Below are positions 338-63,885 of a DNA stretch of 64,000 nucleotides, piece by piece. Source of the DNA: Patescibacteria group bacterium (GTDB taxonomy: Bacteria > Patescibacteriota > Patescibacteriia > JAXHNJ01); contig JAXHNJ010000002.1 in the NCBI GenBank assembly GCA_034520665.1, positions 480,660 through 544,659 of the forward strand. Direction: 5' to 3'. Each line of letters opens with the position of its first letter. The first letter of the stretch is position 1. The position numbers were made by a program, and so were the translations under genes. The notes under the pieces are model-generated. The model was not told the origin of the DNA. It saw nothing but the letters and a program-made list of their open reading frames with translations, and did no database searches.

Positions 338-522
338 ACGTTTTTTATTTAATTTTTAGTATTATCTATTATAGTATATCAAAAAATCTTTAAAAAAAGT
401 AGAGATACTTTTTAAATTATTTTTTCTATAAAATTTTATTTTTTTTGAAAAACATAAAATATTTTTCCAGCGAACATGATTTTTCTATGGGAGACGACCT
501 CCGCAGTGTCCCGATAAAATCA

Positions 523-598
523 GGTGGACCCAACAGGAGTCGAACCTGCGACCTCCGCAGTGCAAATGCGGCGCTCTAGCCAACTGAGCTATGGGCCC
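523..598 (-). tRNA. tRNA-Ala (anticodon TGC)
   Basis: Cloverleaf GGGCCCA/TGGGTCC acceptor stem with the G3:U70 Ala identity pair. Anticodon loop TTTGCAC. T-loop TTCGACT. Discriminator A then CC (terminal A not encoded). Confidence 0.9.
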
Positions 599-631
599 AC
601 CTGATTTTATCGCGGATCCACGATGCGCAAT

Positions 632-898
632 TTATTTTTTAATTAATTTTTCAATAGCTTTTCGCTTTTTCCAAGATTTTATTTGTTTTTCTCGTTTTCT
701 TGCCTTTGATAAATATTTAAATGTTTCAGTATAAACTATTTTCCATGGAATATATCTTTTTGTAGATTTTACCTTACCTTTGTTATGCTGGTTTAATCTT
801 TTTGTTAAGTCTTCACAACTGCCAATATAATAAGAATTATTAATAGTTGATTTTAATATATATAAATAATACATTACATAATATTTATTTGTGCGCAT
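632..898 (-). CDS. GIY-YIG nuclease family protein (88 aa)
   Basis: N-terminal motif YVMYYLYILKS...YYIGSCEDL...R..QHN matches the GIY-YIG core. Start codon lies 5 nt after a duplicated tRNA-Ala 5-prime half. Stop lies 12 nt before the leader of the intact tRNA-Ala. Confidence 0.8.
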   Translation of the reverse strand: MRTNKYYVMYYLYILKSTINNSYYIGSCEDLTKRLNQHNKGKVKSTKRYIPWKIVYTETFKYLSKARKREKQIKSWKKRKAIEKLIKK

Positions 899-903
899 CG
901 GGA

Positions 904-959
904 CAAATGCGGCGCTCTAGCCAACTGAGCTATGGGCCCACCTGATTTTATCGCGGATC
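904..959 (-). repeat. direct repeat: 21-bp tRNA-Ala leader plus tRNA-Ala positions 1-35 (copy of 563-620)
   Basis: 56/56 identity to 563-618. The copy ends inside the anticodon loop (..GCATTTG then diverges). It forms the 5-prime UTR of the GIY-YIG ORF. Confidence 0.9.
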
Positions 960-985: not shown

Positions 986-1076
986 CAAATGCGGTGCTTT
1001 ACCAAAATGAGTCCCGACCTTTTAGGTCGTGGATCCTCGACTCGCGCCTAAGGCGGAGTCGGGACTAAGGAGCCCA
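986..1076 (-). repeat. degenerate tRNA-Ala 5-prime copy interrupted by a 53-nt IR-bounded mini-element (1012-1064)
   Basis: Minus-strand reading GGGCTCCTTAG-[TCCCG...GGATCCTCGAC...CGGGA]-CTCATTTTGGTAAAGCACCGCATTTG resembles tRNA-Ala 1-35 with an insertion between positions 10 and 11. Element has terminal inverted repeats TCCCGAC/GTCGGGA. Confidence 0.7.
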
Positions 1077-1555: not shown

Positions 1556-1825
1556 TCAATTAAAAGTATTTTTAAGCATAGCCCTTAAGGAAGATTTGCC
1601 TTTACTAGTTTTAAAATATCTTTCTCTTTTTTTAGCGTCTATTTTATTATTAAAAACTTCGTAAAAAATAAGTTTTAGGGGTAAATAACTTTTTGTAAAT
1701 GGGCTTTTTCCTTGTTTATGCTCTTTAATCCTTCTACTAATATTAGTTGTAAAGCCGGTGTATAATTTCTTATTTGAGAGTAATAGGATATAAACATAAT
1801 ACATAAATTGTTCGTTATATACCAT
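1556..1825 (-). CDS. GIY-YIG nuclease family protein (89 aa)
   Basis: Motif MYYVYILLLSNKKLYTGFTTNISRRIKEH. The stop codon abuts nucleotide +1 of tRNA-Leu with 0 bp gap. Confidence 0.8.
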   Translation of the reverse strand: MVYNEQFMYYVYILLLSNKKLYTGFTTNISRRIKEHKQGKSPFTKSYLPLKLIFYEVFNNKIDAKKRERYFKTSKGKSSLRAMLKNTFN

Positions 1826-1896
1826 TCTGTACCACTAAAGGGTACAGGATTAGCCGCGAACCCTTTAGTGGTTCACGGCAGTTCCACCACGTTTGC
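1826..1896 (-). repeat. leader of GIY-YIG ORF: degenerate tRNA-Leu 5-prime fragment plus 11-bp-stem hairpin
   Basis: Minus strand GCAAACGTGGTGGAACTG resembles tRNA-Leu GCGGACGTGGCGGAATTG. It is followed by inverted repeat CCACTAAAGGG...CCCTTTAGTGG enclosing a T-loop-like GGTTCGCGGCTAATCC. Confidence 0.6.
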
Positions 1897-1917: not shown

Positions 1918-2286
1918 CTAAGCTGGTTTTTTAGGTTGAAGATTTTCTTTAATTTTAATTTTTTCTTTAAGCTTTTTGGCTCTTCTATTCCGAAGATAAT
2001 AACCTTTTGATTTTCTGATGTTAAATTTTTTGACTATTTCAATTTTTTCAATAGTCGGCGAATAAATAGGAAATATTTTTTCGACCCCCACGCCTTCTGA
2101 TATTTTTCTAACCGTAATAGTTTTAGTTTGTCCGCGTCCTTTAATTTTTAACACGATACCTTCAAAAATTTGAATTCTTTCTTTATCTCCTTCTTTAATT
2201 TTTTGGTGAATACGCACCTTATAGCCAGCTTTTAAATTTTTGGCTTTATTTTTTTTTGATTCTTTTTTTTCTTTTGCTTCGGTCAT
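1918..2286 (-). CDS. rplS: 50S ribosomal protein L19 with Lys-rich N- and C-terminal extensions
   Basis: Core YKVRIHQKIKEGDKERIQIFEGIVLKIKGRG is typical of L19. Confidence 0.9.
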   Translation of the reverse strand: MTEAKEKKESKKNKAKNLKAGYKVRIHQKIKEGDKERIQIFEGIVLKIKGRGQTKTITVRKISEGVGVEKIFPIYSPTIEKIEIVKKFNIRKSKGYYLRNRRAKKLKEKIKIKENLQPKKPA

Positions 2287-2343
2287 ATTTTTAATTTTAT
2301 TAATAAAAAGGTGTATGAATTATAAGTGGAAAAAGTCTAAAAG

Positions 2344-3255
2344 TCAAGACTTTAAATTGTTGAGTGGGTTTTGAAAATTTTGAGGGGGTTTAACCTCATA
2401 CTCTTGCCATTTGTTATTTAAATTATAAAAGCCGATTTTTTGAGCATGTAACATAAGTCTTGGCCAAGATTGATTATCAAATTTTTTTATATTATATTTT
2501 TTATCACCAATAACTGGATGGCCCAAAGCTTTAAAGTGAACTCTGATTTGATTAGTTCTTCCAGTGAGTGTATTTATTTTTATTAAGGAATATTTTTTTA
2601 TTTTCTCTATTAATTTATATCTAGTGATAGCTTTCCTCCCTTTTTTATTTTTTGGTTTAGAAACTATTATTCCTTTTTTTGAACGAGCGATGGGAAAATT
2701 TATCTCTCCTTCATATTTTTCTAAAAGTCCGTGAACCAGCGCCAAATATTCTTTTTTTATCTGGTGGTCTTTAAATTGATTTTTTAAATTTTCAAACATG
2801 GCTTGATTTTTAGCCACGATCATAATTCCGGAAACATTTTTATCTAGACGATGAACAATACCTGGTCTTAGATTATCTTCTCCTACTTTTTTAATGGTTG
2901 AATTATAATTAATTAGTCGGCCAGCCAAAGTATCTTTTTCACTTTTTAAAGTGGGGTGAACCAACAAACCAACCGGTTTATTTATAATTAAGTAATTTTT
3001 TTCTTCTTTGAAAAGTGGCAGCTTTTTTTCTGATAATTTTAATTCTGGCTCGGGTGGTCTTTTGTAATCAATTTTAATAATATCATCTTTTTTTAAAAAA
3101 TAATGAACAGAAATTAGCTTCTTATTAACTTTTACTCGGCCCTGTTTAATCAATTTTTGAATATAAGAGCGCGAGCAATTTGGGAATTCTTGAGCTAAAA
3201 ATTTATCCAGTCTTTCTTTTTCTGCTTTCTGATTTACTTTTATTTTTTTTAGCAT
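2344..3255 (-). CDS. rluD: RluA-family 23S rRNA pseudouridine synthase with N-terminal S4 domain
   Basis: HRLDKNVSGIMIVAKNQ catalytic motif. S4-like N-terminus LDKFLAQEF. Confidence 0.8.
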   Translation of the reverse strand: MLKKIKVNQKAEKERLDKFLAQEFPNCSRSYIQKLIKQGRVKVNKKLISVHYFLKKDDIIKIDYKRPPEPELKLSEKKLPLFKEEKNYLIINKPVGLLVHPTLKSEKDTLAGRLINYNSTIKKVGEDNLRPGIVHRLDKNVSGIMIVAKNQAMFENLKNQFKDHQIKKEYLALVHGLLEKYEGEINFPIARSKKGIIVSKPKNKKGRKAITRYKLIEKIKKYSLIKINTLTGRTNQIRVHFKALGHPVIGDKKYNIKKFDNQSWPRLMLHAQKIGFYNLNNKWQEYEVKPPQNFQNPLNNLKS

Positions 3256-5775: not shown

Positions 5776-5902
5776 CGTTCACACGCCCCCCGCCTTCTTC
5801 TTCAATGTAACTCAATAATTAAGAGGGTAAACTTCGCCCCTACCTCCTAATAGCTTATCTGCCGTAGTCCACTAGGATGCAGGCAGGAAGGCGTAGTGCG
5901 CC
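5776..5902. ncRNA. GC-rich candidate structured RNA (unassigned)
   Basis: About 55% GC island in roughly 30% GC surroundings. No ORF. Contains CAGGCAGGAAGGCG and GGCG-TTCACA-CGCC hairpins. Could not be matched to SRP, tmRNA or RNase P RNA by eye. Confidence 0.25.
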
Positions 5903-6072
5903 CGACCCCTCCACATTTTATCTCTCCGCTAAACTAAGCGTTTAGTTATTATTTTTAAATGATTGTTTTTCAATGCGCCTGGTCTCCCTGCGGGAGACGA
6001 CCCCCATTTTACCGGTCCGCTAAACTAAAGGTTTAGTCATTATTTTTAAGTGATTGTTTTTCAATGCGCCTG
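5903..6072 (-). repeat. two tandem 85-90 bp units, each a degenerate 3-prime fragment of tRNA-Ile(UAU) plus about 50 bp trailer
   Basis: Unit 1 (5903-5982) lacks the T-arm. Unit 2 (5983-6072) has the T-arm replaced by GTCTCCC-TGC-GGGAGAC. Both end in GCGCCTGG (the tRNA acceptor 3-prime strand) with conserved trailer CCGCTAAACTAA.GGTTTAGT.ATTATTTTTAA.TGATTGTTTTTCAATGCGCC. Confidence 0.8.
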
Positions 6073-6137
6073 GATGGACTTGAACCATCGACCCCCACTT
6101 TATAAGAGTGGTGCTCTAACCACTGAGCTACAGGCGC
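6065..6137 (-). tRNA. tRNA-Ile (anticodon TAT)
   Basis: GCGCCTG acceptor stem, anticodon stem CCACT/AGTGG, loop CTTATAA, T-loop TTCAAGT, discriminator A, no CCA. Confidence 0.8.
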
Positions 6138-12570: not shown

Positions 12571-15135
12571 ATGCCAAGAAAAAAAAGCAAGAAAAAGTCC
12601 GCAAAAAATAAACCAGGCGGCCAAAAGAAAAAAACTAGTAAAAAAAATACTCAAAATAAGAAAAAGAAAAAAAGCCTCCCAGAAGAAAAGATTAATCAAA
12701 TCGGTAAATTAAAAGAACAGTCAATTGTTGAAGAGATGCAGACTTGTTATTTAGATTATGCTATGTCGGTTATTGTAGCCAGGGCCTTGCCAGATGTACG
12801 CGACGGTTTAAAACCGGTTCACCGCCGTATTTTATACGCTATGTGGAAAATCGGTTTACACGCTGGAGCAAAGTTTAGAAAATCAGCCACTGTGGTCGGT
12901 GAAGTTTTAGGTAAATATCATCCTCATGGTGATGTGGCTGTTTATGATACTTTAGTGCGTCTGGCCCAGCCTTTTTCTATGAGATATCCTTTGGTAAACG
13001 GCCAGGGTAATTTTGGTTCAATTGACGGAGATAATGCGGCTGCTATGCGTTATACAGAGTCAAAACTGCAGAAGATAGCGGGAAAAATGTTGGTTGACAT
13101 TGAAAAAGAAACAGTGGATTTTGTCCCTAATTATGACGGTACTCATAAAGAACCGGTAGTTTTACCGGCTAAGCTGCCTAATTTTTTATTAAATGGCACT
13201 ATTGGTATCGCCGTGGGTATGGCTACTAATGTACCACCGCATAATTTAACAGAAATAATTAATGCTACTATTCATCTTATTGAAAAGCCAAAAGCAGATG
13301 TAGAAGACTTAATGGAATTTGTTAAAGGACCGGATTTTCCCACTGGCGGTATTATTTATAACTTTGAAGATATTAAACAGACCTATGCGACTGGTAAGGG
13401 CGGAATTGTAGTCAGAGCCAAGGCTGAAATTGTTGAGGATAAAATAAATAAATTTAAAATAATAGTAACAGAAATCCCCTACCAAGTTAATAAATCTACT
13501 TTGTTGGAAAAAATAGCTGATTTAGTTAAGGACAAAAAGCTAGGGGGTATTAGCGATTTGCGTGATGAATCTGATAAAGACGGCATCCGTATTGTAATAG
13601 AGTTGAAAAAAGATGCTTATCCCAAAAAGGTTTTGAACCAACTTTTTAAACAAACTCAGCTTCAAACTAAGTTCCATGTTAATATGTTAGCCTTAGTTGA
13701 TCGGATACAACCGAGAGTGCTGAGCCTGAAAATGGTTTTAGAAGAGTATATTAAACATCGCCGAGAAATAGTAAAAAGACGAACTGAATATGAATTAAAG
13801 CAGGCCAAGGCACGAGCTCATATTTTAGAAGGTTTAAAAATTTGTCTGGCTAAAATTGACGCTGTTATTAAATTAATTAAAAAATCAAAAGACAAAGAAA
13901 AAGCGGCCAAAGCTCTGATTAAAAAGTATAAACTAACTGAAATTCAAGCTAATGCTATTTTAGAAATGAAACTGCAGCAATTATCCGGACTGGAAAGAAA
14001 AAAGATTCTGGACGAATTAAAAGAAAAGAAAAAATTAATTAAAGACTTAAAAGGTATTCTAACTTCCAAAAATAAAAAAATGAATATCATTAAGAAAGAA
14101 TTGGAAGAAGTTAAGGAAAAATATGGTGATGAGAGAAAAACTAAGGTTGTCTCCAGTGCTATTGATAAATTTAGCCAGGAAGATCTTATTCCTAAAGAAG
14201 CTATCATGGTTATGGCTACTCGTGACGGGTATATTAAAAGAATTGCTCCCACTTCTTTTAAAAAACAGAGCCGGGGCGGCAAAGGAGTAATTGGTTTGAC
14301 TACCAAAGAAAAGGATACAGTTTCAACATTTTTTTCCACTAATACTCACGCTGACCTCCTCTTCTTTACCAGTAAAGGAAAGGTTTTTCAGCTCAAAGCT
14401 TATGACTTACCAGTAGCCTCTCGCCAAGCTAAAGGTCAATCTATAGTTAATTTTTTACAACTAGATTCAACTGAAAAAGTATCATCTATTTTACCCTTGG
14501 ATGAATTACAAGGTTATAAATATTTAATGATGGCTACAAGAAAAGGAGTAATTAAAAAAGTTAATATTGAATCCTTTGCTAAAATACGACGTTCTGGTCT
14601 TATTGCTATTCGATTGAAAGAAAAAGACCAACTAGAGTGGGTCAAGCCTTCAACTGGCAAAGATGAAATAATTTTGGCCAGTGAAAAAGGCCAAGCTATA
14701 AGATTTAAAGAAAAAGATGTGCGTGCCATGGGCCGTTCAGCGGCTGGTGTTAGAGCTATTAAATTAAAAGAAGAAGATGAAGTTTCCGGCATGGATATGA
14801 TTAATCAAAAAAGTAAAGTTACTGATTTGCAGTTGATTACAGTTATGGGTAAGGGTTATGGCAAGCGTACTAATTTAAGCAGTTATAAAGTGCAAAGACG
14901 AGGTGGAGTGGGTATAAAAACATCTAAGGTAAGTGATAAAACCGGTAAAATTATTGCTGCTTTTATAGTTGATAAAAATTTGGAAAAAGAAGATTTGATT
15001 ATAGTCTCTGAAAAAGGGCAGGTTATTCGCCTGGCTTTAAAAGAAGTGCCAGCACTTAACCGAGCCACCCAAGGGGTTAAGTTAATGCGTTTTTCAGACC
15101 AAAGCGACCGGGTGGCTTCAGTTACTTTTATTTAA
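12571..15135 (+). CDS. gyrA: DNA gyrase subunit A with Lys-rich N-terminal extension
   Basis: [17 protein letters not shown], catalytic Tyr region, GyrA-box-like QSRGGKG in the C-terminal beta-pinwheel. Confidence 0.92.
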
Positions 15136-17072: not shown

Positions 17073-17765
17073 ATGAGAAATTTTGCCAAGCTTGAAAAAA
17101 AAATAGATTATAGATTTAAAAATAAAGAGCTTCTTAAACAGGCTCTTGTTCACCGCTCTTATCTTAATGAAAATCCAGACTTTCCTCTACCTCATAATGA
17201 ACGTCTGGAATTTTTAGGTGATGCGGTTATTGAATTAGTGGTCACTGTTTTTTTATTTAAAAATTATCCCAATCCTGAGGGAGATTTAACCAACTTTAGA
17301 GCTAGTTTAGTTAATACCAAAATGCTGGCCCAGAGAGCTCGGGAGCTTGATCTGGAAAAATATCTTTATTTAAGTAAGGGTGAAGCCAAAGACAAAAATC
17401 AAAAAGCCCGTCAGAGTATTTTAGCCAATACTTTTGAATCAATGGTCGGAGCTATTTATCTCGATCAGGGGTTTAAAAAGGCTAATAAATTTATTACCGA
17501 AAATTTATTACAAGAATTTCCTAATATCTTAAAGGAAAGATTATATATTGATGCTAAGAGCCGATTACAAGAAATTGTTCAGGATAAGGTGGGAGTGACC
17601 CCGGAATATAAAGTTTTAAAGGAATGGGGTCCGGATCATAGCCGAAAATTTAATATTGGCGTGTTTTTTGGTAAGGAATTAGTAGCTGAAGGAGTGGGCA
17701 GCTCGAAACAGGAGGGCCAGATGAAAGCCGCTGAAAAAGCTTTAATTAAAAAAGGATGGCAATAA
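17073..17765 (+). CDS. rnc: ribonuclease III
   Basis: ERLEFLGDAVIEL signature plus C-terminal dsRBD. Confidence 0.93.
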   Translation: MRNFAKLEKKIDYRFKNKELLKQALVHRSYLNENPDFPLPHNERLEFLGDAVIELVVTVFLFKNYPNPEGDLTNFRASLVNTKMLAQRARELDLEKYLYLSKGEAKDKNQKARQSILANTFESMVGAIYLDQGFKKANKFITENLLQEFPNILKERLYIDAKSRLQEIVQDKVGVTPEYKVLKEWGPDHSRKFNIGVFFGKELVAEGVGSSKQEGQMKAAEKALIKKGWQ

Positions 17766-27500: not shown

Positions 27501-27882
27501 ATATACACTAGTTTAAATAGGTCGAAATTAGACTAAAATTAAATAAAAAGGAACAAAAAATTCATCAAATTTAACCAAGTACATTTAAACAAATAGGAGA
27601 AAAAACAGTGATCTCTAAGTTGTATTTGGAGCTCTCTGTTTTTTCTTCAAATTTTAAAAGGAAAAAAAGAACTTTGACAACTAAAATGTGACAGAAAAAT
27701 GGGTTTTTTGAAATTCCTTTTTAGGAAAAGTAAGTGGTGGAAATTAAGAGGATAAGATTAGGATCAAATATAATCTTAAATATAGATTTTTTTTGATGCA
27801 TCTTGTTTTAGCCTTTCAATTTCCACCACTTGCCAACAAAAAAATATTTTTTTCGAGGATTTATTTTAAAATCCTCAATCCA

Positions 27883-29459
<1,577 letters not shown>

Positions 29460-29552
29460 TAGGGAGTAAAATTATTGGGCTTAAAAACCCAAAATTAAGT
29501 CGGACCCATTATATTCTGTCACTTTTTAGTTGTTAAAGGTATAAAATCACGG

Positions 29553-29579
29553 CCGGACTTGAAAAATCCGGTCTTTTTT
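29553..29579 (+). terminator. hairpin CCGGA-cttgaaaaa-TCCGG plus T6 downstream of 16S
   Basis: Stem-loop followed by TCTTTTTT. Confidence 0.5.
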
Positions 29580-29679
29580 GGTAAATTATATTATATTATT
29601 AGCTAAAAATAGACGGCTATTTCCGATGTTTTGACAAAGTCAAATATCGTAACTCAACACTTATTAACAATCAAAAATT

Positions 29680-29881
29680 TTTTAAAAGTAAATAATAATA
29701 TAATAAAATTTTGGGCGGCTAGTCCCGTTCCGTCGCTTGGCGACAGAACGCGGATCCTCGACCCATAGGGTCGGGACTCAGCTCTTGTAAAACCAAATAT
29801 CTTTTTAAAAGTAAATAATAATATAATAAAATTTTGGGCGGCTAGCTAAGCTGGTTAGAGCGTCTCACTGACCCGCCTGCC
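29680..29881 (+). repeat. two direct units: 43-bp tRNA-Ile leader plus tRNA-Ile 5-prime fragment
   Basis: TTTAAAAGTAAATAATAATATAATAAAATTTTGGGCGGCTAG at 29680-29722 and 29803-29845. Unit 1 carries a 54-nt insertion after position 10. Unit 2 carries tRNA positions 1-36 and then CCCGCCTGCC. Confidence 0.85.
29723..29776 (+). mobile_element. 54-nt mini-element with terminal inverted repeats TCCCG/CGGGA and core GGATCCTCGAC, inserted at position 10/11 of a tRNA-Ile pseudo-copy
   Basis: Second copy at 1012-1064 in opposite orientation relative to its host tRNA-Ala pseudo-copy. Same insertion point TAG^CTCAG. Confidence 0.55.
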
Positions 29882-29950
29882 AAAGTACGAAACCTTATAA
29901 ATTCTTGTTCTTATTTATATAATTACATAGCATTATTTTCCTTTGATGGT

Positions 29951-30027
29951 GGGCGGCTAGCTCAGCTGGTTAGAGCGTCTCACTGATAATGAGGAGGTCG
30001 AAGGTTCGAGTCCTTCGCCGCCCACCA
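29951..30027 (+). tRNA. tRNA-Ile (anticodon GAT)
   Basis: GGGCGGC acceptor stem, anticodon loop CTGATAA, T-loop TTCGAGT, CCA encoded. Confidence 0.92.
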
Positions 30028-30065
30028 TCAGTTGATAATTAAAAAATACTTAGTACGGCGGGTAG

Positions 30066-30107
30066 ATAATGAGGAGGTCGTCTCCAGAAGGGAGACCGTG
30101 CCACCAA
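30066..30107 (+). repeat. tRNA-Ile(GAU) 3-prime fragment copy with T-arm replaced by GTCTCC-AGAA-GGGAGAC hairpin
   Basis: GATAATGAGGAGGTCG-hairpin-CCGTGCCACCA. Confidence 0.75.
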
Positions 30108-30306
30108 GTCGTTTCCGAGTAACCTGGCTCACCAATATTTTAAAAATATCGCAAAGGACATTACATATTTATTTTCCCAGTTGCCGAGACCTAAAAAAGC
30201 CGAGATAGCTCCCCGTCATTCCACGGGGTAAGCAGTGGTAGACCTGCCCGCAATGCCGAGCAAATATAAAGTATATTAAAATATAAAGATAGAGTCTGTC
30301 TCTGGG

Positions 30307-30381
30307 GCCTGGGTAGCTCAGTGGTAGAGCGAAGGACTGAAAATCCTTGCGTCACCAGTTCGATTCTGGTCCCAGGCACCA
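30307..30381 (+). tRNA. tRNA-Phe (anticodon GAA)
   Basis: GCCTGGG acceptor stem, anticodon loop CTGAAAA, T-loop TTCGATT, CCA encoded. Leader TCTGTCTCTGG pairs with trailer CCAGAGGCAGA. Confidence 0.92.
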
Positions 30382-30413
30382 GAGGCAGATTATATTGTTA
30401 ATTGTTTAAGCGT

Positions 30414-30510
30414 TGCTTGGCGGGTGGAGCGAAGGACTGAAAATTTTACCCCGCCCTTGAGTGAAAACGAATAGTGCGAGGCCTTGCGTCACCAGTTCTG
30501 CGACTTTGGC
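30414..30510 (+). pseudogene. degenerate tRNA-Phe copy with 37-nt insertion in the anticodon loop and truncated D-arm
   Basis: GGAGCGAAGGACTGAAAAT + [TTTACCCCGCCCTTGAGTGAAAACGAATAGTGCGAGG] + CCTTGCGTCACCAGTTC, then diverges. Confidence 0.7.
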
Positions 30511-30525
30511 TGAGGTTAGTTTAGT

Positions 30526-30573
30526 CCCGGATGTAGCTCAGTCGGCTAGAGCGCTTGCTTTGGCCCGCCTGCC
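30526..30573 (+). repeat. orphan tRNA 5-prime half (ends in anticodon loop TTTGG) joined to CCCGCCTGCC
   Basis: CCCGGATGTAGCTCAGTCGGCTAGAGCGCTTGCTTTGG then CCCGCCTGCC. The same 10-mer follows the tRNA-Ile 5-prime half at 29872-29881. Confidence 0.7.
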
Positions 30574-30581
30574 TTGACTGA

Positions 30582-30655
30582 CGGGGTATAGCGAAGTTGG
30601 CTATCGCGCCTGCTTTGGGAGCAGGAGATCGTCGGTTCAAGTCCGACTACCCCGA
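30582..30655 (+). tRNA. tRNA-Pro (anticodon TGG)
   Basis: C1:G72 acceptor stem CGGGGTA/TACCCCG, anticodon loop TTTGGGA, T-loop TTCAAGT, discriminator A, no CCA. Confidence 0.85.
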
Positions 30656-30666
30656 TAGCTAAGGCA

Positions 30667-30760
30667 GTCGGGCGGGGAGCAGGAAATCGCGAGTTTGAGT
30701 CTCACATTCCCGACTTAGAGAGAAAAGGTTGTCTCCCAAAGGGAGACGGCCACGACCAAG
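30667..30760 (+). repeat. D-armless tRNA-Pro-like 3-prime fragment followed by GTCTCCC-AAA-GGGAGAC hairpin
   Basis: GTCGGGCGGGGAGCAGGAAATCGCGAGTTTGAGTCTCACATTCCCGAC, then AGGTTGTCTCCCAAAGGGAGAC at 30727-30747. Confidence 0.6.
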
Positions 30761-30790
30761 CGGGTATAGTATAGTGGATTATTATACTAC
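30760..30790 (+). repeat. partial tRNA-Gly(UCC) 5-prime copy (positions 1-30)
   Basis: GCGGGTATAGTATAGTGGATTATTATACTAC versus the gene GCGGGCGTCGTATAGTGGCTATTATGCTAC. Confidence 0.7.
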
Positions 30791-30811
30791 TAAATATTTC
30801 TTAACGAGTAA

Positions 30812-30883
30812 GCGGGCGTCGTATAGTGGCTATTATGCTACCCTTCCAAGGTAGAAACGCCGGTTCGATTCCGGTCGCCCGCT
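30812..30883 (+). tRNA. tRNA-Gly (anticodon TCC)
   Basis: GCGGGCG acceptor stem, anticodon loop CTTCCAA, T-loop TTCGATT, discriminator U, no CCA. Flanked by 13/14 inverted repeat TTCTTAACGAGTAA / TTATTCGTTAAGAA. Confidence 0.88.
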
Positions 30884-30951
30884 TATTCGTTAAGAAGCCA
30901 ATAAATAAATTTGTAGATATTAAGAAAAGGTTCTGCGCCCAAGGTGCATTT

Positions 30952-30982
30952 GTCTCTGACGGAGACTCCGGTCGCCCGCTCC
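30952..30982 (+). repeat. GTCTC-TGAC-GGAGAC hairpin fused to copy of tRNA-Gly 3-prime end (TCCGGTCGCCCGCT)
   Basis: Same architecture as the Ile-UAU and Ile-GAU fragment copies. Confidence 0.7.
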
Positions 30983-31043
30983 AAATTTTATTTAGAAGTA
31001 GGCTATTAAATACTAACTTTAATAAAGTATATTAAAAATTAAA

Positions 31044-31132
31044 GCCGGGATGGCGGAATTGGTATACGCGCTGGACTTAAAATCCAGTGGTGCTCATACA
31101 CCTTGTGGGTTCGAGTCCCACTCCCGGCACCA
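31044..31132 (+). tRNA. tRNA-Leu (anticodon TAA), long variable arm
   Basis: GCCGGGA acceptor stem, anticodon loop CTTAAAA, 16-nt variable arm, T-loop TTCGAGT, CCA encoded. Confidence 0.9.
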
Positions 31133-37977: not shown

Positions 37978-38338
37978 TCACCTCTTTTGTAAAAAAGATT
38001 AAAAAGAACAATAAATTACTTATTTGGGAAGCACTTAAATTTATCAGATAATTATTTTTTTGTCAAGGGAAAAAATAAAAAACCTCTCTTTGAAAGTAAA
38101 GAAAGGCTAATTAAAGGGTAAATAATGGATTACTCTTTTTAATTATTTCATTTTTAAGACGTCACTATCTATTAGCCTTAAAGCTTATTAAAAAAGTTAA
38201 ATTCTGTCAATTTTAAAAATAACCCAAATAAAACCAGGTTATTTTGTTTGAAGCGGCAGATATTTATTGGGAAGACGACCCTTTTTTCCGCCGGCCGGAG
38301 CCGCTATGATATGTATTTATTGCGCTAATATTATATTT

Positions 38339-38415: not shown

Positions 38416-38634
38416 ATATTTATTAATACTGTAATATTTATTATAAACGGCGGCGGGCCGGTTGGCAAGGAATATATTTTTAACAACTGTCAGCCAGAGG
38501 CCGATCCGCTTTGTCTGCCACAGGCAGGCTTTGGTGGAGACTACTGCCGTAAAAATCTAAGTCTACGGGTGGGACCTCCCGCTCCTTGATTTATTATTTC
38601 GCAAGGAATGGCGGGATCTCGCCATTAAGACAGG

Positions 38635-38657
38635 AGAACCGGCGAATAGAGGTTTTG
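38635..38657 (-). repeat. partial duplicate of tRNA-Cys 3-prime half (GAACCGGCGAATAGAGGTTTTG)
   Basis: 22/22 identity to 38711-38732. Copy begins immediately 3-prime of the anticodon. Confidence 0.8.
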
Positions 38658-38687
38658 TCCCGATTTCTCCAAAATTTTGAAGTTAAG

Positions 38688-38762
<75 letters not shown>

Positions 38763-39066
38763 ATGGCTTCAAAATTTTGTTGAGAAATCGAGGATCCTCG
38801 CAAAAGTACTAGTATATAAAATATTTATTTCATCATTGCGGGACAGACCCCCGCCTAGACTTTACTCCGTCAAATGACGGAGATTTGCTTGCCCCACGAA
38901 GCTTAAAAGCGAAGTGGGGGCTTATGTGGCCGTGAAAATTATAACTGGCGGAGCCGACTCTGTTGCCTAACGGAATGGCCGCGAAAAAATTGGTGGAGAC
39001 TATTTTATATAGAAGACATAAATAACTTTTTAAATATTAACAAATTTTGATTATTTTTTCAAGAGT

Positions 39067-42504: not shown

Positions 42505-42887
42505 AGGTTTATTATAGAATATTTAATTATATTGGGCTAATTTGTTTTAAATATTTATCTTATCAATCTGAAATTAATCTATCATTATCCTAGTAATAAT
42601 TTCGGTAACTGGAATATTTATAATTTTCTGGGTTTTTAACTAAATTAGCTCGGACAGGATTATGATGAATCTAATCTAATTTTTGTTTTAAAAAATTTAT
42701 AGAAAAAATATTTTTTATCCAGCCTTGACTCGGCCAGAGTTTATGAGTTTATTTTTTGGTATTAACCGTAAACGTTTTTAATAACTTTTGAGAAATTCGA
42801 AACTATCTTTTTTTGGTTTTGAGGAAGTTGGATTTCTTAATTATATTTTTAAATTTTATTTCGAGAAGATCCAACCGGATAGAGCCA

Positions 42888-43178
42888 CGCGGATCAGGAG
42901 ATCCGCGCTTTTCGGGTAATTTTAAGGGTTTCCTTGGCAGTTTGTTTTATACTAGGTAGATGAGGGCCATGACCCTCATCTAGGCCTGGTTTACTAATTA
43001 ATAATTCTATGTAAATAATCAGGCATAATTTAGATAGCAGAGATAAATCTTTTGCTTTCGCGAAAACAAATATTCCTATCCGCGTAGCTGGAGATTTATC
43101 TCCAGGAGTTAGAATAATTCGGGTAGAGGCGAGCCCTTGCTCGCCTCTAAAATAAGGCCAAAGCGAGGGCTTTGGCCG
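42888..43178. repeat. cluster of five different perfect GC-rich hairpins in an 815-bp non-coding gap
   Basis: 42888-42907 CGCGGATC-AGGA-GATCCGCG. 42957-42982 TAGATGAGGG-CCATGA-CCCTCATCTA. 43088-43105 CTGGAGAT-TT-ATCTCCAG. 43124-43149 TAGAGGCGAGC-CCTT-GCTCGCCTCTA. 43156-43177 GGCCAAAGC-GAGG-GCTTTGGCC (this one plus T-runs acts as a terminator). Confidence 0.7.
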
Positions 43179-43319
43179 ACCCTTTTTATTATAAATACTA
43201 AAATAATTTTCAAAAAGCTAAATTCTCTAAAATTATTAATCTATCTTCATTACAGAATTATTTAAATAATAATTACGATAACCTGAATATTTATAATCTT
43301 TGAGGTTTTCAAAAACATT

Positions 43320-44086
43320 TTATATCTCAATCTGCATCAAATCTTTGGCTAAAACAATTGGGCCTTTATAGGTTTTCTGGGCTTGTTTTTTAAGATCGTA
43401 TTTTTCACATTCCGGATAAAAATGTGTTAAAACTAATTTTTTTACTTTTGCTTTGGAAGCAATTTTGCCAGCTTGGGAAGGAGTTAAATGGCTTTTAACT
43501 TTATTTTGATTGGGCATGCTACTTTCAATTAATAGTAAGTCCGTATTTTTTGAAATTTCCAATAGGCTTTTCGGATAGTCAAAACATATATCTCCGGCGT
43601 AAACCATTGATTTTCCTTTATATTCAATACGATAAGCGACGGCGTAAGGAGAAAAAGTATGGCCTTGTTTCCAGGTATAGACTGATTTTACTTGGAAATT
43701 CTTCGCTTTGTAGGTTAAATTATGCATTTCTTTAATCTTTAACTTAAAACAAAAGTACTCCGTATATTTAGGAAAAAATGCCTCCCCATTTTTTTGATAA
43801 ATCCTTTTATTTTTTTAGGACCGAGTAAAACAATTTCACGATTGGTTTGTCTGACCCACCAATTCCAAAAAAGAGCCGGTAGATCGGCCACATGATCGAC
43901 ATGTGTGTGGGTAATTAAAATATAATTTATTTTTGTGTCATCATAGCCGGCATCTATAATATGCTCTTTGGTCCCGGAGCCAGCGTCCATTAAGATTAAA
44001 TCTCGGCCAATCTCCAGGAGATAACCGGGTTCATTTCTTTTGGTTGAAGGATCAGTTGTGCCCGATCCTAGAATGGTTAGTTTCAT
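43320..44086 (-). pseudogene. MBL-fold metallo-hydrolase (RNase Z-like) split into two ORFs by a frameshift near 43728-43740
   Basis: ORF 43739-44086 carries THTHVDHV (HxHxDH). ORF 43320-43727 carries the C-terminal half. Frames differ by 2 nt with an 11-nt gap. Confidence 0.6.
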
Positions 44087-59084: not shown

Positions 59085-59274
59085 TAAAAAACGGGGCTCA
59101 CTCTGACGGATCAGAGGTATTGCCCCACGAAAGGTACTCCCTAGTTTTACTAGGGCGGATGAGCGAATCGGAAGATCATGGGTCCTCCATTTGGCTCGGG
59201 CGAGCGTCGCCAGAAAGTGCTTATCCGGCGACAAAGTACCCTAAAATATTAGCAAGGGGGTTATTATTTGTCAA
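59085..59274 (-). ncRNA. candidate small RNA (about 150 nt) with own promoter and intrinsic terminator
   Basis: Minus strand: TTGACA (RC of 59269-59274), 17 bp, TAATAT (RC of 59246-59251). About 55% GC body with at least five hairpins. Terminator GGGGC...[CTCTGA-TCCG-TCAGAG]...GCCCC plus T6 at 59125-59085. No ORF. Confidence 0.5.
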
Positions 59275-63595: not shown

Positions 63596-63797
63596 AGCCT
63601 ATTCTAGCCTCAGCCAAAGGCTCATCCGTTCTTTAGTGGAGATCCGCCTCGGGCGGAAACTGAGCTATTGACTCAAAGATAGAAACGGGCCGTCTAGCTC
63701 TCGTTTTGCCAAGAAAGAAACGGATTCTCAAAGTTTAAGTTGAACTTTATTTCGCCCCTCCTCTGAGAGGCGTAACAGAACTATTATTTATGGGCCC
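63596..63797 (-). repeat. GC-rich structured segment upstream of tRNA-Ala(GGC) containing dispersed tRNA-Ala 5-prime fragments
   Basis: Minus strand: GGGCCCATA (RC of 63789-63797), then about 120 nt, ATAGCTCAGTT, then about 85 nt, then the intact tRNA. Hairpins GTGAGCCT...AGGCTCAT and GGAGATCCGCCTCGGGCGGA. Confidence 0.5.
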
Positions 63798-63885
63798 GTC
63801 TTTATAAAATTATAGATTATTAAATAAAATAAATCAATATCAAACATACTTGGTCTGATATTGATTTATATAAATATTATCTTTT

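Follow-up and report, generated by a model that had tools for sequence, protein, structure and literature searches.

GC-rich hairpins in tRNA gene remnants of a Patescibacteria genome and their possible origin in tRNA-carrying palindromic cassettes

We analyzed a 64-kb stretch of contig JAXHNJ010000002.1 from a Patescibacteria group bacterium (assembly GCA_034520665.1, positions 480,660 to 544,659; hereafter the window), in which a short GC-rich hairpin, GTCTCC(C)-N3-5-(G)GGAGAC, recurs beside transfer RNA (tRNA) genes and within remnants of them. The window has a GC content of 32.6% and encodes 13 tRNA genes and one 16S rRNA gene, the remainder being housekeeping genes. The sequence read comprised the window and about 5 kb (~4.8 kb) beyond it, out of a genome of 698 kb, and Logan contigs L001, L207, and L208 (SRR26473340) come from the same organism. 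Relatives were compared at syntenic loci (L161, L163, L164, and L209-L212), the CCA-adding enzyme being 63-68% identical for the relatives compared; the L161 locus is a 21.5-kb excerpt of a longer contig, and a metagenome search with the CCA-adding enzyme yielded 26 loci, mostly distant.

We found three full copies, one variant, and two truncated copies of the hairpin in the 64 kb (Table 1), and the coordinates and sequences given for these sites in a preliminary description of the window were correct on re-reading. The pattern GTCTCC-N{3,6}-GGAGAC had three exact matches against 0.00 expected from 100 shuffles, all of them with N5 (5982-5998, 30080-30096, and 30731-30747), and GGTCGTCTYCC with at most one mismatch had seven matches against 0.33 expected, which supports the claim that the hairpin is not a random occurrence. 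Six of these seven are the sites of the preliminary description, and all six lie 24-76 nt 3' of a tRNA gene and on its strand, as had been claimed; the seventh (1235-1245) falls inside an open reading frame (ORF). The arms are constant (GTCTCC/GGAGAC) and the loops of the three full copies differ (GCA, AGAAG, and AAA). The whole window contains 18 perfect GC-rich hairpins. Folding was unremarkable for copies 1, 2, and 4 (z-scores -0.2 to -1.4), and copy 3 folded at -20.6 kcal/mol (z -3.96). Searches of Rfam at the gathering threshold and at E values up to 5 returned nothing for the hairpins, for the E elements described below, or for the GC-rich debris. A scan of a genome collection for RGGTYGTCTCCNNNNGGGAGAC gave at least 120 matches, and those listed were almost all chance matches in GC-rich coding DNA, such as an Acidobacteria gene; a match in a low-GC genome of the candidate phyla radiation (CPR), L061, is not near a tRNA, and L078 is a GC-rich chance match. 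The GTCTCC hairpin is absent from the syntenic loci L161, L163, L164, and L209-L212.

The preliminary description had proposed that the hairpin precisely substitutes for the T-arm of a tRNA copy, and this stood for two of the sites, where 15 nt are replaced in register. At tRNA-Ile(UAU), a 91-nt repeat is 89% identical outside the arm, and TCTCCCGCAGGGAGA, of equal length, stands in place of the 15 inner T-arm nucleotides ATGGTTCAAGTCCAT. At tRNA-Ile(GAU), 16 nt of the remnant are 100% identical to the gene up to GGTCG, the next 15 nt are exchanged, and the hairpin is followed by a diverged acceptor strand and ACCA. The T-arm hairpin sits between G49 and C65 of the T-stem. Substitution failed for the copy at 30952, which is a T-loop insertion: GGTTC is followed by TGCGCC-CAA-GGTGCA, TTT, and GTCTC-TGACG-GAGAC, and then by TCCGGT-acceptor-CCA, the CCA not being encoded by the adjacent live tRNA-Gly(UCC) gene. 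This insertion has a homolog of 98 nt in the T loop of a pseudo-tRNA-Arg that lies 5 kb outside the window in this genome (L208 3093-3190). The homolog starts with TGCGCC-TAA-GGCGCA and ends with TCTCTGGCGGAG, as the copy 4 insertion does, and its right end TCTCTGGCGGAGA matches copy 4. Because the GTCTCC...GGAGAC arms are common to the terminal hairpin of both T-loop insertions, we read the 15-17-nt hairpin as a minimal member or stub of the family of palindromic insertions to which these belong.

The flanks of the hairpins were likewise said to copy the neighboring tRNA in every case, which was falsified as a general rule. They do so fully at tRNA-Ile(UAU) and tRNA-Ile(GAU), and at tRNA-Ala(UGC) on the left side only, where the flank is exact over 14 nt (tRNA positions 37-50) and is followed by half a hairpin with no acceptor. 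Flanks of the copy at 30731 match no tRNA in the window, where there is also no cognate tRNA for its GGCCACG-A-CCA, and the copy at tRNA-Gly(GCC) shows weak resemblance. The broader proposal, that the hairpin is tied to tRNA-derived flanks and records a process that rearranges DNA at tRNA genes, held. Insertions often lie between G and C (GGTCG, hairpin, C; or TAG, TCCCG..CGGGA, C), with an exception between A and G in L210, and no clear target duplication was found at the junctions examined.

Table 1. Hairpin copies, tRNA remnants, cassettes, and related elements (window coordinates unless a contig is named).
Feature	Coordinates	Strand	Composition and remarks
Hairpin copy 1	5982..5998	-	GTCTCCC-GCA-GGGAGAC; T-arm replaced in tRNA-Ile(UAU) 3' remnant; in register, 91-nt offset from live tRNA
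tRNA-Ile(UAU) 3' remnant, unit 2	5974..6011	-	TAAAATGGGGGTCG + hairpin + CAGGCGCA; begins at third anticodon base
Two 91-nt tandem units	5911..6073	-	tRNA-Ile(UAU) 3' part + 59-nt trailer; 72 nt at 89% identity
Third, truncated tandem unit at tRNA-Ile(UAU)	starts 5920-5903	-	TAAAATGTGGAGGGGTCG
Hairpin copy 2	30080..30096	+	GTCTCC-AGAAG-GGAGAC
Outer 3' remnant, older tRNA-Ile(GAU)	30065..30106	+	GATAATGAGGAGGTCG + hairpin + CGTGCCACCA
Hairpin copy 3	30731..30747	+	GTCTCCC-AAA-GGGAGAC; AAAAGGTT before, acceptor-like GGCCACG-A-CCA after
Pseudo-tRNA-Gly(UCC) T-loop region	30929..30983	+	GGTTC + two-hairpin insertion + TCCGGTCGCCCGCT-CCA; 14 nt at 100%
Variant hairpin copy 4	30952-30966	+	GTCTC-TGACG-GAGAC; right-hand hairpin of the insertion; left-hand hairpin 30934-30948
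Outer 3' remnant, older tRNA-Ala(UGC), with truncated copy 5	485..508	-	CACTGCGGAGGTCG + half hairpin TCTCCCATAG
Truncated hairpin copy 6	38270..38280	-	GGTCGTCTTCC, 3' of tRNA-Gly(GCC); weak resemblance to that tRNA
Outer 5' half, older tRNA-Ala(UGC)	904..959	-	Positions 1-36 (36 nt at 100%) + 20-nt duplicated leader
Cassette E at tRNA-Ala(UGC)	509..903	-	Between G35 and C36 of older gene; carries gene now in use
Outer 5' half, older tRNA-Ile(GAU)	29836..29871	+	Positions 1-36; 97% over 36 nt; own leader + promoter-like site
Earlier pseudo-copy of tRNA-Ile	29713-29782	+	
Anticodon-loop cassette at tRNA-Ile(GAU)	29872..30064	+	Ends CCCGCC...GGCGGG; live tRNA-Ile(GAU) 29951-30027
Nested tRNA-Cys locus	38636..38850	-	Live tRNA-Cys 38688-38762; 22 nt at 100%
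Nested tRNA-Pro locus	30526..30714	+	Outer 5' half, CCCGCCTGCCTTGACTGA, live tRNA-Pro 30582-30655, TAGCTAAGGCAGTCGGGCGGG, outer 3' half
tRNA-Leu(GAG) diverged 5' piece + two hairpins + GIY-YIG ORF	1556..1896	-	
E elements, window	509-903; 38658-38843; 29723-29776; 1012-1064	-; -; +; -	
E elements outside window	L201 3978-4361; L191 3979-4288; L164 238-298; L208 2868-2897		
Empty 54-nt two-hairpin E element	29723..29776	+	TCCCG...GGATCC...CGGGA; after TAG (D loop) of pseudo-tRNA-Ile
Second empty E element	1012..1064	-	After TAG (D-loop position) of pseudo-tRNA-Ala; stems differ by paired changes from 29723-29776
30-nt single-hairpin E version	L208 2868-2897		D-loop position of pseudo-tRNA-Arg
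Members of the ~98-nt family	L208 3093-3190; window 63612-63642, about 38490-38545, 30499-30520		
Further GIY-YIG genes	L163 1035-1274, 1390-1629, 7056-7310; L165 about 2257-2500		

The debris around the live tRNA genes is made up of 3' halves and also of 5' halves with leaders, and the 59-nt trailer, 20-30-nt leaders, and promoter-like sequences were co-duplicated with the fragments, which, as judged from their sequence, are DNA-level remnants of older tRNA genes. The fragments, their junctions, their co-duplicated flanks, and their nesting around a gene in use can be read directly at several loci. Cassette E at tRNA-Ala(UGC) runs from TCCCGATGCGCA through a GIY-YIG ORF (632-874) to TGCGCATCG-T-GGATCC-G-CGATAAAATCAGGT, the live tRNA-Ala(UGC) (523-598), and ACCTGATTTTATCGGGA. 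The tRNA-Cys locus is ordered as ...GGGTCTG, TCCCGCAATG...GGATCC-T-CGA, the live tRNA-Cys, GAAATCGGGA, an outer 3' piece CAAAACCTCTATTCGCCGGTTC, and a T-loop insertion, and its cassette has the same TCCCG...GGATCC...CGGGA ends as that at tRNA-Ala(UGC). In the outer 3' half at tRNA-Pro the T-arm is decayed yet not replaced. The tRNA-Leu(GAG) locus consists of a 5' piece (1896-1879), two hairpins (1878-1854 and 1846-1828), and an ORF (1556-1804) that abuts the live tRNA-Leu.

Five live tRNAs (523-598, 30307-30381, 30582-30655, 30811-30884, and 38688-38762) have complementary leader and trailer flanks of 11-19 nt, whose pairing lengthens the acceptor stem into a long helix resembling a processing stem. 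These stems may be cut by RNase III, which is encoded in the window at 17073-17765. Promoter-like sites at 29681-29709 and 29804-29832 were duplicated along with the 5' copies of pseudo-tRNA-Ile, so the live gene may be read from the promoters of displaced genes. The short-read Logan contigs L001, L207, and L208 stop exactly at tRNA-debris loci, so that assemblies are broken by the repeat structure there.

The cassette at tRNA-Ala(UGC) belongs to what we call the E element, laid out as TCCCGA, stem 1, GGATCC, stem 2, and TCGGGA, in which the loop of stem 1 may hold a GIY-YIG ORF and the loop of stem 2 a whole tRNA gene. E elements occur across distant CPR lineages, mostly between G and C, and form a size series with the same termini of 395 nt (509-903), 54 nt (29723-29776), and 30 nt (L208 2868-2897). 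Across the clade, GC-rich palindromes of 15 to ~100 nt are found at D-loop, anticodon-loop, and T-loop or T-arm positions of dead tRNA copies; in any one genome their ends define a few families, each with a size series. A GC-rich family of ~98 nt, with motifs TTTGGCTGAG and GTCTCCACC, is seen at T-loop and D-loop positions of pseudo-tRNAs in either orientation, and its relatives within the window lie in debris at tRNA-Ala(GGC), Cys, and Phe. The GIY-YIG ORFs at 632-874 and 1556-1804, both on the minus strand, match PF01541 at 4e-17 and 4e-16. In the window, L191, and L201, the left arm of the E element contains such an ORF. The encoded proteins, of ~80 aa, comprise the catalytic domain alone, and their family is widespread in CPR. 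Genes of this ~80-aa type adjoin tRNA genes or fragments in five of six distinct locus types, and those of L163 form 355-nt tandem units, each repeating the last 13 nt of tRNA-Ile(UAU).

Among syntenic relatives the tRNA order is kept and the debris is not, a variation that would be expected of mobile or decaying DNA. The same architecture is present in relatives with unrelated hairpins, and the exact GTCTCC sequence is genome-specific. The T-arm is seen directly to be replaced by unrelated hairpins in two other genomes. In L163 (6902-6938), 3' of tRNA-Ala(UGC), the replacement lies in the order GGAGGTCG, CCCCGCC-GAT-GGCGGGG, TTGGGTCCACCA. In L161, the pseudo-tRNA-Val at 13317-13451 is complete, with ACCA and a paired acceptor stem; it adjoins a decayed GIY-YIG ORF and has a perfect hairpin in the D loop, the anticodon loop, and the T-arm, the T-arm-type hairpin in L161 being GAGGGTT-TTAA-AACCCTC; it folds at -82.9 kcal/mol (z -9.6) into a closed cloverleaf. 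Copies of pseudo-tRNA-Lys with hairpins in the anticodon and T loops (T-loop insertion 2197-2236) surround a GIY-YIG gene in L165, and an E element precedes a tRNA-Val 3' half with an intact T-arm in L164.

Filled and empty sites could also be compared between relatives. The tRNA-Val(TAC) of L209 (4199-4273) is uninterrupted, whereas in L210 (4434-4655) the same 3' half (39 nt, one mismatch) is parted from a 5' half by a hairpin-ended cassette that holds a different tRNA-Val(TAC). The window, L161, and L209 have the pseudo-Leu with its two hairpins, and L210 and L211 lack it; the gene beside it is GIY-YIG in the window, 23S_rRNA_IVP in L209, and none in L161; the L209 gene (PF05635, 3486-3866) lies between the L19 gene and the pseudo-Leu/tRNA-Leu. 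Downstream of tRNA-Ile(UAU), L161 is clean, L163 has GIY-YIG repeats, and the window has hairpin units. At greater distance, the full TCCCGA...GIY-YIG...GGATCC...tRNA...TCGGGA element interrupts tRNA-Ala(CGC) at 35/36 in distant Parcubacteria (L201-L206), and Staskawiczbacteria (L191-L200) have an E element without a tRNA where a protein gene ends. The presence of the full element in these lineages indicates a widespread CPR element and not a local accident.

We lean towards the view that the hairpin represents the minimal form within a lineage-specific family of GC-rich palindromic insertions in dead tRNA copies, which were wrecked by tRNA-carrying cassettes. Under this proposal, tRNA genes in this Patescibacteria clade would be repeatedly overwritten by short cassettes ending in inverted repeats (TCCCGA...TCGGGA with internal GGATCC, CCCGCC...GGCGGG, or TCTCC...GGAGA). 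Each cassette would bring an intact copy of the same tRNA between a complementary leader and trailer, often with the gene for the ~80-aa GIY-YIG nuclease in another arm, and would land in a loop of the resident gene, mostly the anticodon loop at 35/36-37/38 and also the D loop or T loop. The resident gene would be split, with its 5' and 3' halves remaining around the new gene, and since the new tRNA copy supplies the function, no splicing would be needed. The nuclease may drive insertion by homing, with the tRNA halves serving as homology arms. Internal deletion would then shrink cassettes to their closing stems, giving sizes of about 400, 54, 30, and 15-17 nt, and GTCTCC(C)-N3-5-(G)GGAGAC would be such a stub at the T-arm base of displaced 3' halves, probably made by deletion and not by direct hairpin-for-hairpin replacement.

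Several observations weigh against this proposal. Among the copies of the GTCTCC hairpin in the ~69 kb read, none was found to carry cargo or to be flanked on each side by an intact T-stem half, so the shrunken-cassette origin of copies 1-3 is extrapolated from copy 4 and the other families. Insertion and random deletion would not predict the exact in-register exchange of 15 nt for 15 in copies 1 and 2, which hints at a length constraint, whether of structure or function, or at an exchange of hairpin for hairpin. The insertion junctions are not uniform, with G and C frequent and A and G also seen in L210, and the 64 kb and about 5 kb read are a small part of the 698-kb genome. A role of the GIY-YIG protein in insertion would have to be played by a catalytic domain alone. 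Finally, the exact hairpin was found in none of the relatives compared, so we infer its mobility from its multiplicity in one genome.

The most serious rival, because structure and not sequence recurs across genomes, is a functional RNA module, in which hairpin-bearing 3' pieces are kept as processing or stability signals in tRNA polycistrons; they might act as a landmark for RNase III or RNase P/Z, as a 3' protective stem, or as "tRNA punctuation" around the nuclease mRNA, and a stable 15-17-nt hairpin would mimic the T-arm in length. One architecture with unrelated hairpin sequences in three genomes, the 15-for-15 swap of copies 1 and 2, the shared orientation of all copies with an upstream tRNA at most 76 nt away, the closed cloverleaf of the L161 pseudo-tRNA-Val with its paired acceptor stem and ACCA, the old promoters still upstream of 5' pieces, and the RNase III gene of the window would all fit such a role. 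A parallel is offered by the GC-rich palindromes that flank Neurospora mitochondrial tRNA genes and that have reportedly been proposed as processing signals. We nevertheless consider this role unlikely, since the modules are not kept at orthologous sites (the three different states downstream of tRNA-Ile(UAU) being an example), the 3' arm is missing from two of the six, a minihelix cannot form in the window copies for want of a 5' acceptor partner, the folding of copies 1, 2, and 4 is ordinary, and Rfam has no match. Still less probable is a generic intrinsic terminator or chance palindrome, a reading to which we give almost no weight: a GC-rich stem-loop does stand 3' of tRNA genes, and a T-rich tract follows copy 3 on the opposite strand, but chance predicts no copies, no T-run follows the hairpin on the tRNA strand, and copies 1-3 were not called as terminators there. 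The only call on that strand was the first hairpin of the copy 4 insertion (30934-30948), which is not of the GTCTC type. Real terminators in the window, such as that after tRNA-Ala(GGC), look different, and the hairpin is embedded in tRNA-derived sequence.

The two mechanisms offered in the preliminary description, a recombinase core site and retro-type or template-switching copying, both fared poorly. Integrative elements that target tRNA genes classically leave fragments of tRNA 3' ends that start in the anticodon loop beside an intact tRNA, and such fragments, the serial units at tRNA-Ile(UAU), and the perfect palindrome would suit an attachment-site remnant, with the hairpin as recombinase core and the fragments as attL/attR-type scars. 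Tyrosine-recombinase cores, however, need a crossover spacer of 6-8 bp, and the spacer here is 3-5 nt. The ORFs of the window were scanned for integrase, recombinase, transposase, Cas1-like, and reverse transcriptase (RT) genes, and none was found. Integration that replaces a 3' end would not displace 5' halves, the repeats are 50-90 nt apart in units of 50-400 nt and not at the ends of kb-sized elements, the hairpin removes the T-arm that such integrases use, and the relatives conserve the architecture and not the hairpin sequence. A scan of viral contigs gave 39 chance matches and no attP-like site. We therefore regard this origin as improbable. Even less credible is a retro-copy, in which an RT would stall at the modified T loop and switch onto the hairpin, leaving fragments of cDNA. 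Copies 2, 3, and 4 do end in acceptor-N-CCA, the CCA of copy 4 is absent from the adjacent live gene, and the break point is at the T-arm. Yet copy 1 has a 59-nt non-tRNA trailer and no CCA, so that unprocessed flanks were copied, and 5' halves exist, with 20-30-nt leaders and promoter-like sites. Older versions of the genes, with CCA encoded as in many relatives, account for the CCA, and stalling and switching would not yield the same hairpin each time. Group II introns are reported to be absent from Patescibacteria (PMC13011429).

Other candidates were tried and rejected. A synthetic Type IIS site was suggested by the occurrence of CGTCTC and GAGACC, but was discarded for the variation in the arms. 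P-nucleotide or snap-back palindromes do not fit, as the arms bear no relation to their flanks, and a minihelix lacks its 5' acceptor partner. A permuted or tandem tRNA junction with acceptor GGGAGAC was dismissed, as the suggestive AGTCTCCACCA belongs to the ~98-nt element family. Quasi-palindrome correction of the T-arm fits the L161 and L165 cases only and not GTCTCCC.

Returning to the palindromic insertions that we favor, mobile GC-rich hairpin elements are known from AT-rich mitochondrial genomes; GC-rich palindromes flank Neurospora mitochondrial tRNA genes (PMC4478555, PMC2800124), and the GC clusters of yeast mitochondria target AG (PMC4478555). We compared the window hairpins with mobile palindromes of this type, namely yeast GC clusters, Allomyces double-hairpin elements, sponge repetitive hairpin-forming elements (RHEs), and Neurospora palindromes. 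Rickettsia palindromic elements (RPEs) and bacterial repetitive extragenic palindromes (REPs) are further palindromic elements. Like the mitochondrial types, the window hairpins are short, multi-copy, and perfect, in a small AT-rich genome; they have constant stems and variable loops and come in single, double, and multiple forms; and they lie in structured-RNA genes or beside tRNAs, with a presence that varies among relatives. Yeast GC clusters target AG, and the E elements of the window similarly follow TAG or TTG. The host here, unlike a mitochondrion, is a free-standing bacterial genome; the elements sit at loop and arm positions of dead tRNAs, with the T-arm replaced nearly nucleotide for nucleotide in two to five cases; and the hairpins occur alongside cassettes that bring an entire tRNA gene as a replacement.

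Within CPR, every GIY-YIG protein of rRNA genes is encoded in an insertion that belongs to neither group I nor group II introns; short insertions occur at the tops or bases of stem-loops (PMC11270868). The window shares with these the phylum, GIY-YIG ORFs in non-intron insertions, and a closing helix, and, as with 23S intervening sequences (IVSs) processed by RNase III, its insertions lie at the tip or base of stem-loops (D, anticodon, and T loops, and the T-stem). RNase III is encoded in the window, and a 23S_rRNA_IVP gene stands at the equivalent site in L209. Here the host genes are instead tRNAs, which cannot function as fragments, so the element would supply an intact copy of its own and leave the interrupted gene disused. 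We found nothing like a tRNA-gene version of the CPR rRNA insertions described in the papers that could be searched.

Homing-endonuclease genes (HEGs) that carry a replacement 3' end of the host gene are known from fungal mitochondria. Similar to such host-displacing HEGs, the cassettes leave an old gene fragment downstream as a pseudogene and have flanks that can be homology arms. In phage T4, the GIY-YIG gene segB is free-standing in a tRNA cluster (PMC2330249), and the GIY-YIG gene of the window is likewise beside or inside tRNA genes. The putative homing nuclease of the window differs in being ~80 aa long and a catalytic domain alone, and the cassette differs in being a complete gene copy nested in the old gene with hairpin-forming ends. 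Group I introns interrupt Patescibacteria tRNA genes at 35/36, and their HEGs are HNH (PMC13011429). The window cassettes share that phylum and anticodon-loop site, but no group I intron signal (RF00028) was found in the window in Rfam at E values up to 5, the junctions come after G, where a group I intron would have a U as the last base of its 5' exon, parts of the T-arm or acceptor are missing from the outer genes and could not be restored by splicing, and the nuclease is GIY-YIG. The tRNA 3' fragments from the anticodon or T loop beside an intact tRNA, sometimes serial, resemble attachment-site remnants, from which the window differs in having no integrase, displaced 5' halves, units of tens of nucleotides and not kilobases, and a T-arm removed. 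Archaeal tRNA genes may have several introns at non-canonical positions, and the L161 pseudo-tRNA-Val similarly has insertions at its D-, anticodon-, and T-loop positions. Removal of these insertions, unlike that of archaeal introns, would restore no tRNA, since the pseudogene lacks its T-arm and some of its D-arm, and to our knowledge no splicing endonuclease is known in bacteria.

More tentatively, and as a possibility to which we give less credence than to the palindromic insertions themselves, Patescibacteria may harbor a class of selfish hairpin-ended "gene-replacing" cassettes not described before, which a minimal GIY-YIG nuclease would mobilize. Rather than splicing out, they would home into tRNA loops with their own intact tRNA copy, with the conserved tRNA halves as homology arms and expression from the old promoter. 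The T-arm hairpins would then be cassette stubs or plugs that disable the displaced halves. If so, tRNA genes, which tend to be regarded as the least changeable portion of a bacterial genome, would turn over continually under the action of an element that makes itself indispensable. Nearly every tRNA locus read here has a single live gene surrounded by layers of dead copies, palindromic insertions, and nuclease genes. Carrying a spare copy would be a third lifestyle for a mobile element in an essential RNA gene, besides self-splicing and excision by RNase III. Such debris can mislead tRNA annotation and integration-site prediction in CPR genomes, and it offers a bacterial counterpart to the mitochondrial GC-rich palindromes, whose mode of spread remains unsolved. 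The hairpins belong to a known kind, and there is a real chance that self-replacing tRNA cassettes, as the larger system, are new. In the searchable literature we found neither tRNA remnants with a substituted hairpin nor GIY-YIG cassettes that carry a tRNA.

Elsewhere in the window, the gene order from 27882 to 31132 is 16S rRNA and then tRNA-Ile, Phe, Pro, Gly, and Leu, with protein genes after these; no 23S gene lies within the 64 kb, so the rRNA genes appear to be unlinked. An 800-nt non-coding stretch with no Rfam match (42505-43320) holds perfect GC-rich hairpins at 42888-42907, 42957-42982, 43124-43149, and 43156-43177, one of which, preceded by AAAAAGGGTCG, resembles truncated copy 6. 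Next to it, neighboring ORFs at 43320-43727 and 43739-44086 on the minus strand each match half of a metallo-beta-lactamase fold and could be a split or frameshifted gene. Another GC-rich, structured non-coding stretch with no Rfam match (59087-59243) lies between the glutamate dehydrogenase and RNase HII genes. Two regions on the minus strand that adjoin tRNA debris (5780-5910 and 63700-63800) are GC-rich and apparently structured, and they have a GGAGG(TA)GGGGCGAA-like motif in common. The live tRNA-Ile(UAU) gene (6065-6137, minus strand) has an anticodon that is unusual in bacteria, and its syntenic position is kept in L161, L163, L166, L169, L171, and L172.

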